Under the pieces are notes generated by a model. It was given only the letters and a program-made list of their open reading frames with translations, did no database searches and was not told the origin of the DNA. This document shows positions 1-20,184 of a DNA stretch of 64,000 bases, one piece after another. The position numbers and the translations under genes are program-made. Origin of the DNA: a phage; the sequence record PX104380.1. The stretch is one strand, 5' to 3'. The number at the start of each line of letters is the position of its first letter. The stretch's first letter is position 1.

Positions 1-1836
<1,836 letters not shown>

Positions 1837-1864
1837 TATTAAAGCATATTAAAGAGGATTAAAA

Positions 1865-3844
1865 ATGACTTTATTATCTCCGGGCATTGAGCTCAAAGAA
1901 ACTACGGTTCAAAGCACCGTGGTTAATAACTCTACTGGTACAGCAGCTTTGGCCGGTAAATTCCAGTGGGGTCCTGCTTTTCAGATTAAACAGGTTACAA
2001 ATGAAGTAGATTTAGTTAATACTTTTGGTCAACCAACCGCTGAAACTGCTGACTATTTTATGTCTGCGATGAATTTCTTGCAGTACGGAAATGACTTACG
2101 AGTAGTTCGTGCTGTTGATAGAGATACCGCTAAAAACTCATCTCCGATTGCTGGTAATATTGAATACACAATTTCTACCCCAGGTAGTAACTATGCAGTT
2201 GGAGATAAAATCACGGTCAAATATGTTTCAGATGATATTGAAACTGAAGGTAAAATTACTGAAGTAGACGCAGATGGAAAAATTAAGAAAATTAATATTC
2301 CTACTGCAAAAATTATCGCTAAAGCTAAAGAAGTTGGCGAATACCCAGCATTAGGTTCTAACTGGACTGCAGAAATTTCTTCATCTTCTTCCGGTTTAGC
2401 TGCAGTAATAACTCTTGGAAAAATTATTACTGATTCCGGTATTTTATTAGCTGAAATCGAGAGCGCTGAAACTGCTATGACAGCAGTTGATTTTCAGGCA
2501 AATCTTGAAAAATATGGAATTCCAGGAGTAGTAGCTCTCTATCCAGGCGAATTAGGCGATAAAATTGAAATTGAAATCGTATCTAAAGCTGACTATGCGA
2601 AAGGCGCTTCTGCATTACTCCCAATTTATCCAGGTGGTGGTACTCGCGCATCTACTGCCAAAGCAGTGTTTGGATATGGACCACAAACTGATTCACAGTA
2701 CGCCATTATAGTTCGTCGTAATGATGCTATTGTTCAAAGCGTTGTTCTTTCAACTAAGCGTGGTGAAAAAGATATTTACGATAGTAACATCTATATCGAT
2801 GACTTTTTCGCAAAAGGTGGTTCAGAATATATTTTTGCAACTGCACAAAACTGGCCAGAAGGCTTCTCTGGAATTTTAACTCTGTCTGGTGGATTATCAT
2901 CAAATGCTGAAGTAACAGCAGGAGATTTGATGGAAGCTTGGGACTTCTTTGCTGACCGTGAATCTGTTGACGTTCAACTGTTTATTGCGGGTTCTTGTGC
3001 TGGTGAATCTTTAGAAACAGCATCTACTGTCCAAAAACACGTCGTTTCAATTGGTGATGCTCGCCAGGATTGCTTAGTATTGTGCTCACCACCGCGTGAA
3101 ACTGTAGTTGGAATTCCTGTAACCCGTGCTGTTGATAACTTAGTCAATTGGAGAACTGCAGCAGGTTCATACACTGATAATAACTTTAATATCAGTTCAA
3201 CCTACGCAGCAATTGATGGCAACTACAAATATCAGTATGACAAATATAATGATGTGAATCGTTGGGTTCCATTAGCAGCTGATATTGCTGGTTTATGCGC
3301 AAGAACTGATAACGTATCTCAGACTTGGATGTCTCCAGCTGGTTATAATCGTGGCCAGATTCTTAACGTTATTAAACTTGCTATTGAAACTCGCCAGGCT
3401 CAGCGCGACCGTTTATATCAAGAAGCTATCAACCCGGTAACTGGTACAGGTGGTGATGGTTACGTATTGTATGGTGATAAAACAGCTACTTCTGTTCCTT
3501 CTCCATTTGATCGTATTAACGTTCGTCGTCTGTTTAATATGTTGAAAACGAATATCGGACGTAGTTCAAAATATCGTTTGTTCGAATTAAACAATGCGTT
3601 TACTCGTTCTTCATTCCGTACAGAAACTGCTCAGTACTTGCAAGGAATTAAAGCTCTTGGCGGAATTTATGAATATCGTGTAGTTTGCGATACAACAAAT
3701 AACACTCCGTCAGTAATTGATAGAAATGAGTTTGTTGCAACATTCTACATCCAACCGGCGCGCAGTATAAATTATATCCAACTTAATTTCGTCGCAACTG
3801 CTACTGGCGCAGACTTCGATGAGTTAACTGGACTTGCAGGTTAA
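1865..3844 (+). CDS. 18: tail sheath protein gp18
   Basis: 659-aa ORF with ATG and SD; size and position as in T4. Confidence 0.95.
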   Translation: MTLLSPGIELKETTVQSTVVNNSTGTAALAGKFQWGPAFQIKQVTNEVDLVNTFGQPTAETADYFMSAMNFLQYGNDLRVVRAVDRDTAKNSSPIAGNIEYTISTPGSNYAVGDKITVKYVSDDIETEGKITEVDADGKIKKINIPTAKIIAKAKEVGEYPALGSNWTAEISSSSSGLAAVITLGKIITDSGILLAEIESAETAMTAVDFQANLEKYGIPGVVALYPGELGDKIEIEIVSKADYAKGASALLPIYPGGGTRASTAKAVFGYGPQTDSQYAIIVRRNDAIVQSVVLSTKRGEKDIYDSNIYIDDFFAKGGSEYIFATAQNWPEGFSGILTLSGGLSSNAEVTAGDLMEAWDFFADRESVDVQLFIAGSCAGESLETASTVQKHVVSIGDARQDCLVLCSPPRETVVGIPVTRAVDNLVNWRTAAGSYTDNNFNISSTYAAIDGNYKYQYDKYNDVNRWVPLAADIAGLCARTDNVSQTWMSPAGYNRGQILNVIKLAIETRQAQRDRLYQEAINPVTGTGGDGYVLYGDKTATSVPSPFDRINVRRLFNMLKTNIGRSSKYRLFELNNAFTRSSFRTETAQYLQGIKALGGIYEYRVVCDTTNNTPSVIDRNEFVATFYIQPARSINYIQLNFVATATGADFDELTGLAG

Positions 3845-3850
3845 TTGATT

Positions 3851-4489
3851 ATGGGGCTTCGGCCCCTATTCTCGAGGAAACAAGTGATTATTTCTAAGTT
3901 TGTTACAATAAAACCAAGAAATCATTCAAAAATGTGGTCGACAATTCTGGGATATAAAGTATCATATCATGATACAGTATCTGTTCCAATAGAATTAATG
4001 CCAAAGAATAGTAATAAAATAGTTGACGCTAAATGTGATTTGTGTGGTACTAAATTTAGTAGAAGCATTCAGCTTTTAAATAGAACACCCACACATGCAT
4101 GTAGAAAATGTAGCATTAAACAAGTTGCTATTAAAAATTCGGAAGTTCAATCTGGAATAAGCAGACCATGGCAAAGAGGCGATAAACATCCTCGATGGAC
4201 TGGTAAAAGAAAAGAGTTTGCATTATATGCTAGTAGAGTTCATTCTATAACTAAGTCAGCTAAAATAAGAAAAATTTGGTCAAAATGGCCAAATGCTGAT
4301 AAAATAGGAGTGTGTGGCGTAGAAGGTGCTTACCAACTCGATCATAAAGTATCTATCAAATATGGATTTGATAATTTAATTCCGCCGGAAATTATAGCAA
4401 GCGTAAAAAATTTAGAAATAATCACTTGGGAATCTAACCGAGAAAAATCAAAAAGAAATAGTGTAGATCTTTGGGATTTACTAGAATGA
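3851..4489 (+). CDS. free-standing HNH homing endonuclease inserted between genes 18 and 19
   Basis: frame open from TTG 3845 immediately after gp18 stop; in-frame ATGs at 3851 and 3932 (true start uncertain); CxxC...CxxC zinc-finger-like pairs and C-terminal HNH-like motif DHKVS..G..N..N; no gene here in T4 as I recall. Confidence 0.6.
   Translation: MGLRPLFSRKQVIISKFVTIKPRNHSKMWSTILGYKVSYHDTVSVPIELMPKNSNKIVDAKCDLCGTKFSRSIQLLNRTPTHACRKCSIKQVAIKNSEVQSGISRPWQRGDKHPRWTGKRKEFALYASRVHSITKSAKIRKIWSKWPNADKIGVCGVEGAYQLDHKVSIKYGFDNLIPPEIIASVKNLEIITWESNREKSKRNSVDLWDLLE
3853..3866 (+). other. RNA hairpin GGGGC-UUCG-GCCCC directly 3' of gene 18, embedding the ATG at 3851
   Basis: perfect 5-bp GC stem with UUCG tetraloop read from sequence; no U-run after it. 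Confidence 0.5.
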
Positions 4490-4515
4490 TTCTAAAGGCC
4501 TGTTTCGGCAGGCCA

Positions 4516-4523
4516 TATAAATA
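4516..4523 (+). promoter_or_regulatory. late promoter TATAAATA (distal copy), preceded by hairpin 4497-4514
   Basis: GGCCTG-N6-CAGGCC hairpin followed by ATATAAATAC. Confidence 0.45.
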
Positions 4524-4574
4524 CACTATATCCTTAATTCTTTAATTCTATATGCCCTAGGTTAAACATAGGGA

Positions 4575-4582
4575 TATAAATA
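4575..4582 (+). promoter_or_regulatory. late promoter TATAAATA for gene 19, preceded by hairpin 4555-4573
   Basis: CCCTA-N9-TAGGG hairpin followed by ATATAAATAC; 14 nt upstream of ATG 4597 with SD AGAGG. Confidence 0.55.
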
Positions 4583-4596
4583 CTACAGAGGCTAAT

Positions 4597-5088
4597 ATGT
4601 TTGTAGATGATGTAACACGAGCGTTTGAATCTGGTGATTTTGCTCGACCTAACTTATTCCAAGTAGAAATTTCTTATCTTGGACAAAATTTTACGTTCCA
4701 ATGTAAAGCCACTGCTTTACCAGCTGGTATTGTAGAAAAAATTCCAGTCGGATTTATGAACCGTAAAATTAACGTGGCAGGCGATCGTACATTCGATGAC
4801 TGGACTGTTACAGTAATGAACGATGAAGCTCATGATGCTCGCCAGAAGTTTGTTGATTGGCAAAGCATTGCTGCTGGTCAAGGAAACGAAATTACTGGTG
4901 GAAAACCTGCAGAGTATAAAAAGAGCGCTATTGTTCGTCAATATGCTCGTGATGCTAAAACAGTAACAAAAGAAATTGAAATTAAAGGTCTGTGGCCTAC
5001 TAACGTGGGTGAACTTCAATTAGATTGGGATTCAAACAATGAAATCCAAACCTTTGAAGTAACTCTTGCTCTCGATTATTGGGAATAA
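4597..5088 (+). CDS. 19: tail tube protein gp19
   Basis: 163-aa ORF, ATG with SD; T4 size and position. Confidence 0.95.
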   Translation: MFVDDVTRAFESGDFARPNLFQVEISYLGQNFTFQCKATALPAGIVEKIPVGFMNRKINVAGDRTFDDWTVTVMNDEAHDARQKFVDWQSIAAGQGNEITGGKPAEYKKSAIVRQYARDAKTVTKEIEIKGLWPTNVGELQLDWDSNNEIQTFEVTLALDYWE

Positions 5089-5093
5089 AATGA

Positions 5094-5111
5094 ATGGGGA
5101 GAAATCCCCAT
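5094..5111 (+). other. hairpin ATGGGGA-GAAA-TCCCCAT 3' of gene 19
   Basis: 7-bp stem with GAAA loop; no clear U-run, so a terminator role is uncertain. Confidence 0.4.
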
Positions 5112-5120
5112 CCTGCTTAA

Positions 5121-6745
<1,625 letters not shown>

Positions 6746-10526: not shown

Positions 10527-10534
10527 TATAAATA
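10527..10534 (+). promoter_or_regulatory. late promoter TATAAATA for gene 24
   Basis: exact TATAAATA 27 nt upstream of ATG 10562. Confidence 0.55.
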
Positions 10535-20172: not shown

Positions 20173-20184
20173 TATTTATAAATA
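20173..20184. promoter_or_regulatory. overlapping divergent late promoters (TATTTATAAATA) for genes 26 and 51
   Basis: plus-strand TATAAATA 20177-20184 and minus-strand TATAAATA 20173-20180 share a palindromic core. Confidence 0.55.

Follow-up and report, generated by a model that had tools for sequence, protein, structure and literature searches.

Why should one phage gene be preceded by two late promoter boxes, each with a hairpin of its own? The question is posed by the 107 nt that lie upstream of gene 19 in the stretch of phage DNA that we have analyzed (64,000 nucleotides of the record PX104380.1, the window in what follows), where the spacer comes directly after an extra ORF. The preliminary description had considered that the second unit could be the scar of an endonuclease insertion, with one copy carried in and the other one resident, or else an element that secures the expression of gene 19 past the insert. 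Reading the sequence again we found both hairpin plus TATAAATA units in the places where they had been described, and all the earlier coordinates were correct.

The window comes from a T-even phage of the genus Tequatrovirus, and its positions 3600-4800 are ~98% identical to T6, PST, PP01 and others. The gene order is 17 (1-1833), 18 (1865-3844), the extra ORF (3884-4489), 19 (4597-5088) and 20. Gene 18, as given in the ORF list, is on the plus strand, codes for 659 aa with a TAA stop at 3842-3844, and aligns with T4 and T6 records annotated as tail sheath. Gene 19, also on the plus strand of the ORF list, codes for 163 aa from the ATG at 4597; its start and the spacer before it align to T4 and T6, in both of which a tail tube protein is annotated there, and gp19 is a 100% amino acid match to four IMG/VR Tequatrovirus loci. 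The Shine-Dalgarno sequence (SD) of gene 19, GAGG, is located at 4588-4591 on the same strand, 5 nt from the ATG. The spacer (4490-4596) reads in its first half TTCTAAA GGCCTGTTTCGGCAGGCC A TATAAATA CACTATATCC TTAATTCT TTAATTCT and continues as ATATG CCCTAGGTTAAACATAGGG A TATAAATA CTACA GAGG CTAAT, followed by the ATG. The sequence at 4490-4596 is simply what normally separates genes 18 and 19 in T-even (Tequatrovirus) phages. The two consecutive copies of TTAATTCT form an exact tandem repeat on the plus strand (4534-4549), between the distal promoter box and the second hairpin; in Mosigvirus a single copy is found. A MAFFT alignment of the genera revealed that a AATTAATTC-like box precedes the second hairpin in most Tevenvirinae-like lineages. 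An Rfam scan of 3700-5300, with E values up to 1, gave one match at chance level, located outside the spacer.

The distal late box, P1, is found at 4516-4523 and the proximal one, P2, at 4575-4582, both on the plus strand and both exact copies of the consensus. TATAAATA is the consensus of T4 late promoters, which need no -35 element (PMC1524935; PMC2988020), and the T4 late box is placed at -13 to -6 (PMC1524935). Applying this rule, transcription is predicted to start at ~4529 from P1, with a leader of ~68 nt, and at ~G4588 from P2, with a leader of ~9 nt that starts at the SD (~100564 and ~100623, respectively, in the coordinates of T4 NC_000866). At P1 as well as at P2 the box is matched in 8 of 8 positions, lies on the coding strand and has its predicted +1 before the gene 19 ATG. 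The earlier assignment of the two units to the T4 late promoter form ahead of gene 19, each one preceded by a stem-loop, is supported. Over the window there are 19 copies of TATAAATA versus 8.6 expected, and none of 100 shuffles reached 19. Because TATAAATA is enriched in the window, two perfect coding-strand boxes in a 107-nt spacer are not taken as chance. The decamer ATATAAATAC that includes the box is an exact direct repeat (4515-4524 and 4574-4583, with a spacing of 59 nt), but its identity past the octamer is unremarkable, the A before and the C after being each present at ~5/19 of the boxes in the window. The distance from P2 to the ATG, 14 nt, is the shortest in the window, compared to 17-34 nt for the other boxes located just upstream of start codons. 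Within 4490-4596 no sigma-70-like site was detected. In the literature that we searched no mapped 5' end of T4 gene 19 was found.

Other late boxes of the window are worth describing on their own. At 20173-20180 (minus strand) and 20177-20184 (plus strand) two opposite-strand TATAAATA boxes overlap by 4 nt, each of them 17-21 nt before an ATG, and the 20173-20184 segment looks like a back-to-back divergent pair of late promoters. A hairpin together with a late box is also present at 10527, 30999 (minus strand) and 60747, where the hairpins have T-runs and are located 5-17 nt from the box.

Hairpin 1 (GGCCTGTTTCGGCAGGCC, that is GGCCTGT-TTCG-GCAGGCC; 4497-4514, plus strand) has 7 pairs and a UUCG loop. 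Its predicted stability is -11.3 kcal/mol (z = -3.4), a value equalled by 1 of 200 shuffles. It is identical in T4, and the Mosigvirus version, GGGCTAT-TTCG-GTAGCCC, has two compensatory double changes. Hairpin 2 (CCCTAGGTTAAACATAGGG, that is CCCTA-GGTTAAACA-TAGGG; 4555-4573, plus strand) has 5-6 pairs and is extendable to 4550-4578. Alone it is weak (-5.4 kcal/mol, z = -1.0); with the AUAU flanks it reaches about -9 kcal/mol, and -9.3 kcal/mol within the P1 leader. In some Tequatroviruses (L031 of our IMG/VR set and fPS-90) one base pair of this stem cannot form. We have taken it as real mainly because stronger hairpins sit there in other genera. Specifically, at least 12 lineages have a hairpin there whose stem differs in sequence and stops 0-6 nt (mostly 0-1) short of the box. 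In the MAFFT alignment the genera do not share one register for the 5' arm, and the conservation of hairpin 2 was judged by per-lineage folding z-scores and by pairwise compensatory changes between close relatives, such as CCGTTC/GAACGG in L036 versus CCGCTC/GAGCGG in L039. In the window the spacing to the box is the same in both units, hairpin 1 ending one base before the TATAAATA at 4516-4523 and hairpin 2 one base before that at 4575-4582.

Neither of these stem-loops qualifies as a Rho-independent terminator: the stems are there, but the tails are ATATAAATAC, without a T-run, and a terminator scan of 1700-5300 called neither. In the loop or on the 3' side of hairpin 2 there is a conserved CTGGTKAA-like motif (4558-4566 in the window, with equivalents in L032-L046 and in L044). 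It appears as CTAGGTTAA in T4, CTGGTTAA in Mosigvirus, CTGGTGAA in the Gelderland-like phages and CCTGGTGTG in L044, within stems that differ, and it has no match in Rfam. Further downstream, a weak stem CUACAGA/UUUGUAG (4583-4606; -6.1 kcal/mol, z = -1.9) spans the SD and the AUG of gene 19. According to the folding, it could form on P1 or read-through transcripts and not on those from P2. Since this stem is not conserved beyond Tequatrovirus and Mosigvirus, we have given it little weight.

We consider it likely that the spacer contains two resident gp55-type late promoters in tandem, in which hairpin 1 would form the 3' end of the upstream message and hairpin 2 would belong to the leader of the distal transcript. 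P1 and P2 would both be of the gp55/gp33/gp45 type, their firing in vivo and their start sites being those that we infer from the boxes. Hairpin 1 would close the upstream cistron, which is gene 18 in T4 and the inserted ORF here, most likely acting as a barrier to 3' exonucleases or as a leaky stop rather than as a canonical terminator. Hairpin 2 would be found in the middle of the 68-nt leader of P1 transcripts, or in read-through ones, and would leave the SD free; no pairing of the SD was predicted in the P1 leader of any lineage folded. P2 would give rise to a second transcript with a very short leader, and a transcript that starts at the SD would be unusual. P1, P2 and the read-through from the gene 18 promoter could thus provide several independent sources of late mRNA for a high-copy tail tube gene. 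The T6 record gives 144 gp19 protomers for each tail, a number that agrees with strong late expression being needed. As for the ORF at 3884-4489, it would be a separate mobile cassette that inserted after the stop codon of gene 18 and ahead of hairpin 1.

We have examined how this architecture varies among T4-like phages by comparing twelve phage records and 80 IMG/VR loci encoding gp19 relatives (the L numbers). In distant lineages (the Aeromonas-type L079-L086, the KVP40-type L089 and L090, and also L075 and L076) the spacer has ~45 nt and one GC-rich hairpin; the box, which can be TATAAATA, CATAAATA or CTAAATA, comes directly after the hairpin, and the gene 19 ATG 13-22 nt further on. In the Tevenvirinae-like lineages the spacer is 102-127 nt long and has two hairpins. 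The retention of the two boxes is variable. Tequatrovirus has a perfect box after each hairpin. Mosigvirus keeps P1, which is therefore perfect in these two genera, and has the degenerate CATATTAC in place of P2. In the Gelderland-like groups hairpin 1 is followed by CATAAATA (with C at -13) and hairpin 2 by a perfect box, and several other Tevenvirinae-like groups have kept the proximal box alone. Acinetobacter-type and Krischvirus phages have a hairpin and no box, and in the clade formed by L044, L058 and L069 the order is box, hairpin and SD. More than 10 divergent lineages, in which the flanks have changed, keep an exact P2 box at 11-17 nt from the ATG of gene 19. Among the lineages with a proximal box the stem sequences vary, and most of them fold better than shuffles. 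Within Tequatrovirus the spacer is nearly invariant throughout, and conservation inside the genus does not single out the boxes. Because Mosigvirus lacks P2 and the P1 of the Gelderland-like phages is imperfect, neither box is indispensable.

The single unit of the distant lineages makes an ancient duplication plausible. The event would have been a tandem duplication of a 'stop-hairpin-late promoter' module, similar to a PeSL, kept as a unit and serving as a hotspot for recombination or insertion. We consider this origin possible although rather doubtful. In its favor, a single module (gene 18 stop, hairpin, box, then 13-22 nt to the ATG) is all that the distant T4-like phages have, against the two hairpins of the Tevenvirinae-like lineages in their longer spacer. 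One ORF family, moreover, is found on one side of the module in some lineages and on the other side in others. There is also a weak similarity of the flanks beyond the decamer, ATTCTAAAGGCC (4489-4500) versus ATTCTATATGCC (4545-4556). However, the local alignment of the two units, which was equalled by 6 of 2000 shuffles with the decamer included, was equalled by 123 of 2000 when it was left out, and because this remaining similarity is not significant a duplication of the sequence is not demonstrated. Past the promoter box there is no significant homology, the two stems are unrelated in sequence, and a recombination event between the units was not seen. The resemblance to PeSLs cuts both ways: these are stem-loops just upstream of a promoter plus SD and are found near indels, but they carry sigma-70 early promoters and belong to hyperplastic regions and not to a structural gene block (PMC4122927).

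With the same reserve, the stem-loop and late promoter before gene 19 may perhaps be regarded as an ancient composite module kept by selection, a counterpart of the PeSLs with a late promoter. Its duplication would date from the Tevenvirinae ancestor, and its two edges would be recurrent landing sites for PHROG 5104, the endonuclease-like family of the inserted ORF; we would not bet on this view. If it were true, the composite module would be at the same time the 3' end structure of the gene 18 mRNA and the promoter of gene 19. The second hairpin would have become a conserved element of the gene 19 leader (the AATTAATTC box plus the CUGGUKAA loop motif), and in some lineages the PHROG 5104 ORF would take over the proximal promoter, giving a leaderless late mRNA.

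A different reading of the spacer is that only one of the boxes works as a promoter for gene 19 and the other one has been kept for a role at the RNA level. Such a box could, for example, serve a leaky terminator as its AU-rich tail, offer RNase E a site beside a protective 3' hairpin, or enhance translation as an AU-rich element before the SD. The P2 leader of only ~9 nt is consistent with this, as are the Mosigvirus phages, which manage without P2, the imperfect P1 of the Gelderland-like phages and the deposited annotation of fPS-90, which predicts P2 alone. Besides, only 0-1 nt separates the hairpin from the box in many lineages, which is the geometry of a terminator stem plus its tail; yet the T-run is absent after both stems and, as mentioned, neither was called by the terminator scan. 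An AU-rich RNA element would need no 8/8 match, and still more than 10 divergent lineages have an exact proximal box and two genera an exact P1. We regard a single working promoter as unlikely.

The last possibility, namely that one hairpin-promoter unit arrived with the ORF cassette while the other was resident, is the one that the preliminary description had raised. The units do share the decamer ATATAAATAC and weakly similar 5' flanks (ATTCTAAAGGCC and ATTCTATATGCC), and an ORF of a sporadically distributed family is located directly upstream of them. In T4 (NC_000866), where gene 19 comes after gene 18 without an ORF in between, the spacer does not differ at any base from 4490-4599 of the window, and the match extends at 100% over 211 nt. 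The T4 junction reads GGTTAA TACGGTGCA TTCTAAAGGCCTG, that is, GGTTAA-TACGGTGCA-TTCTAAAGG. Both units are carried unchanged, and without the ORF, by teqdroes, fPS-90 and the IMG/VR loci L028-L031 and L043 as well. In an alignment of 7 Tequatrovirus spacers, 3 of them with the ORF (window, Pu-Krd-SF2 and sb1) and 4 without it (T4, teqdroes, L031 and fPS-90), both TATAAATA boxes were invariant. Actually, the 211-nt spacer stretch is found at 95% identity or more in ~500 phage records, and the insert in only 70 of the 655 phage records that match a query of 1201 nt, which describes a family sporadic at a fixed intergenic site among close relatives. The limits of the insert do not suggest that a unit came with it either: its stop codon is 7 nt before hairpin 1, and TATAAATA is found at neither end. 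The Gelderland-like L033 and L034 lack the ORF and STP4-a has it, with two hairpins downstream in all of them, and in L035 the homologous ORF is located downstream of both units. The similarity of the units outside the decamer is the non-significant one given above. A secondary deletion of an ancestral insert, leaving one unit behind in every insert-free genome, is argued against by the deep lineages, which never show the ORF upstream and have nonetheless the hairpin-promoter unit. An insertion scar is thus extremely improbable, and the finding that had been named beforehand as its refutation, both units in phages without the insert, is the one obtained.

On this comparative evidence the two-unit layout is old and resident, and is not tied to the ORF. 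The other suggestion, of an element that secures gene 19 expression past the insert, holds only in a trivial sense, as gene 19 has kept its own promoters and goes undisturbed by the insert, but the units are not there because of the insert.

The cassette itself has 645 bp (3845-4489). It takes the place of the nine bases TACGGTGCA that follow the gene 18 stop in T4, and is wholly upstream of both hairpin-promoter units. At its 5' edge, and outside the two units, there is a canonical C(UUCG)G hairpin, GGGGCTTCGGCCCC (3853-3866, plus strand, -9.6 kcal/mol). It is followed by a ribosome binding site (RBS), GAGGAA (3874-3879), and by an ORF of 201 aa with a GTG start (3884-4489, plus strand), which is a homologue of T6ORF160 and belongs to PHROG 5104. 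No TATAAATA was found between gene 18 and this ORF, and transcription from the gene 18 promoter at 1829 must therefore serve it. The free-standing endonuclease cassettes without promoters that are reviewed in PMC2988022 are similar in this. The record of phage G2133 has the 3853-3866 hairpin annotated as a putative terminator (ARNold). In Salmonella phage STP4-a (Gelderlandvirus; L112:85-98) the equivalent hairpin, GGGCCTTCGGGCCC, also a canonical C(UUCG)G one, comes directly after the gene 18 stop and is followed by an RBS and then GTG ATT ATC TCT AAA, and in Klebsiella phage Roth16 a different hairpin is found at this place. From the features present, the insert is a clean promoter-less cassette (hairpin, RBS and GTG-ORF) that has left the gene 19 control region intact.

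The label of HNH insert that the ORF had received is weakly supported. The ORF matches PHROG 5104, a family without an assigned function, with E = 4.5e-83, and has a weak N-terminal match to a homing-endonuclease PHROG; in its homologues the C-terminal part weakly matches HNH and endonuclease VII PHROGs, and a D-H...N...N motif is visible by eye in the translation. Searches of the ORF against Pfam, NCBIfam and PDB sequences gave nothing beyond sub-threshold zinc-finger-like matches. An HNH-like free-standing endonuclease is a plausible identity for the product.

PHROG 5104 adjoins gene 19 in several genera. The ORF is located upstream of both units in the window, T6, STP4-a, Ursula and Roth16, and downstream of the proximal TATAAATA in L035:100-260, L045:150-240 and L053:120-230. 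In these three loci its ATG is found 5-6 nt after the box (TATAAATAttcgtATG, TATAAATAtaagtATG and TATAAATAagttatATG, respectively), and at such a distance a leaderless late mRNA is predicted for the ORF. In the Acinetobacter-type L066:255-310 and L073:255-310, a hairpin GGCTCTC-TATAAATA-N7/8-GAGAGCC encloses the late box before the homologous ORF.

By all these matches, the gene 18-19 spacer with both units is what a T-even genome ordinarily carries there. Its elements fall into classes that are well described, the late promoter consensus and the intercistronic UUCG hairpin. What is useful here is a negative result: the duplication is uninformative on the insertion event. There are two modest leads, not established, for phage transcription and homing-endonuclease biology. 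One is a hairpin-promoter composite conserved from the KVP40- and Aeromonas-type phages to T4, and the other a single ORF family with landing sites on both flanks of this composite.

Several known systems invite comparison with this spacer. In the control by hairpins that sequester the RBS (T4 gene e, soc and I-TevI, and mobE of Aeh1) the late transcripts lack the 5' arm of the hairpin, and the 4583-4606 stem is comparable; it differs in being weak and not conserved, and hairpins 1 and 2 leave the SD untouched. The layout of the regulated homing endonucleases of the I-TevI/mobE kind is seen upstream of the homologous ORF in L066 and L073, and not in the window. C(UUCG)G tetraloop hairpins are said to have been described by Tuerk et al. 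in 1988 in the intercistronic regions of T4. Hairpin 1 is like them in its UUCG loop, GC-rich stem and intercistronic location, and differs in the U-G pair that closes the loop. Hairpin 2 differs by its 9-nt loop, and the hairpin at 3853-3866 is canonical. The PeSL/PmSL cassettes (Arbiol 2010; Comeau 2014, PMC4122927) are similar in the order of stem-loop, promoter, SD and start, in their tandem arrangement and in their position next to an indel. They differ in having a sigma-70 early or a Mot-dependent middle promoter and in being found in hyperplastic regions, whereas the units of the window are late and belong to a conserved structural module. We have considered filing the units as PeSLs, as the order of stem-loop and promoter fits (with a gap of 1 nt), but the defining sigma-70 class of promoter is absent, and no evidence of cassette shuffling of the window units was found.

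In kind, the units are like the T4 late promoters (gp55 sigma factor, gp33 co-activator and gp45 sliding clamp), with which P1 and P2 share the exact 8-bp box, the coding strand and a late structural gene downstream. Compared with the typical ones, the window has two boxes in tandem for one gene, and P2 is unusually near the start codon. The closest match of all is the gene 18-19 region of T4 itself (NC_000866 100516-100631). There the spacer follows the gene 18 stop after 9 bases (TACGGTGCA), where the window has the 645-bp cassette, and from TTCTAAAGG to the gene 19 ATG both phages are identical in hairpins, boxes, SD and spacing.
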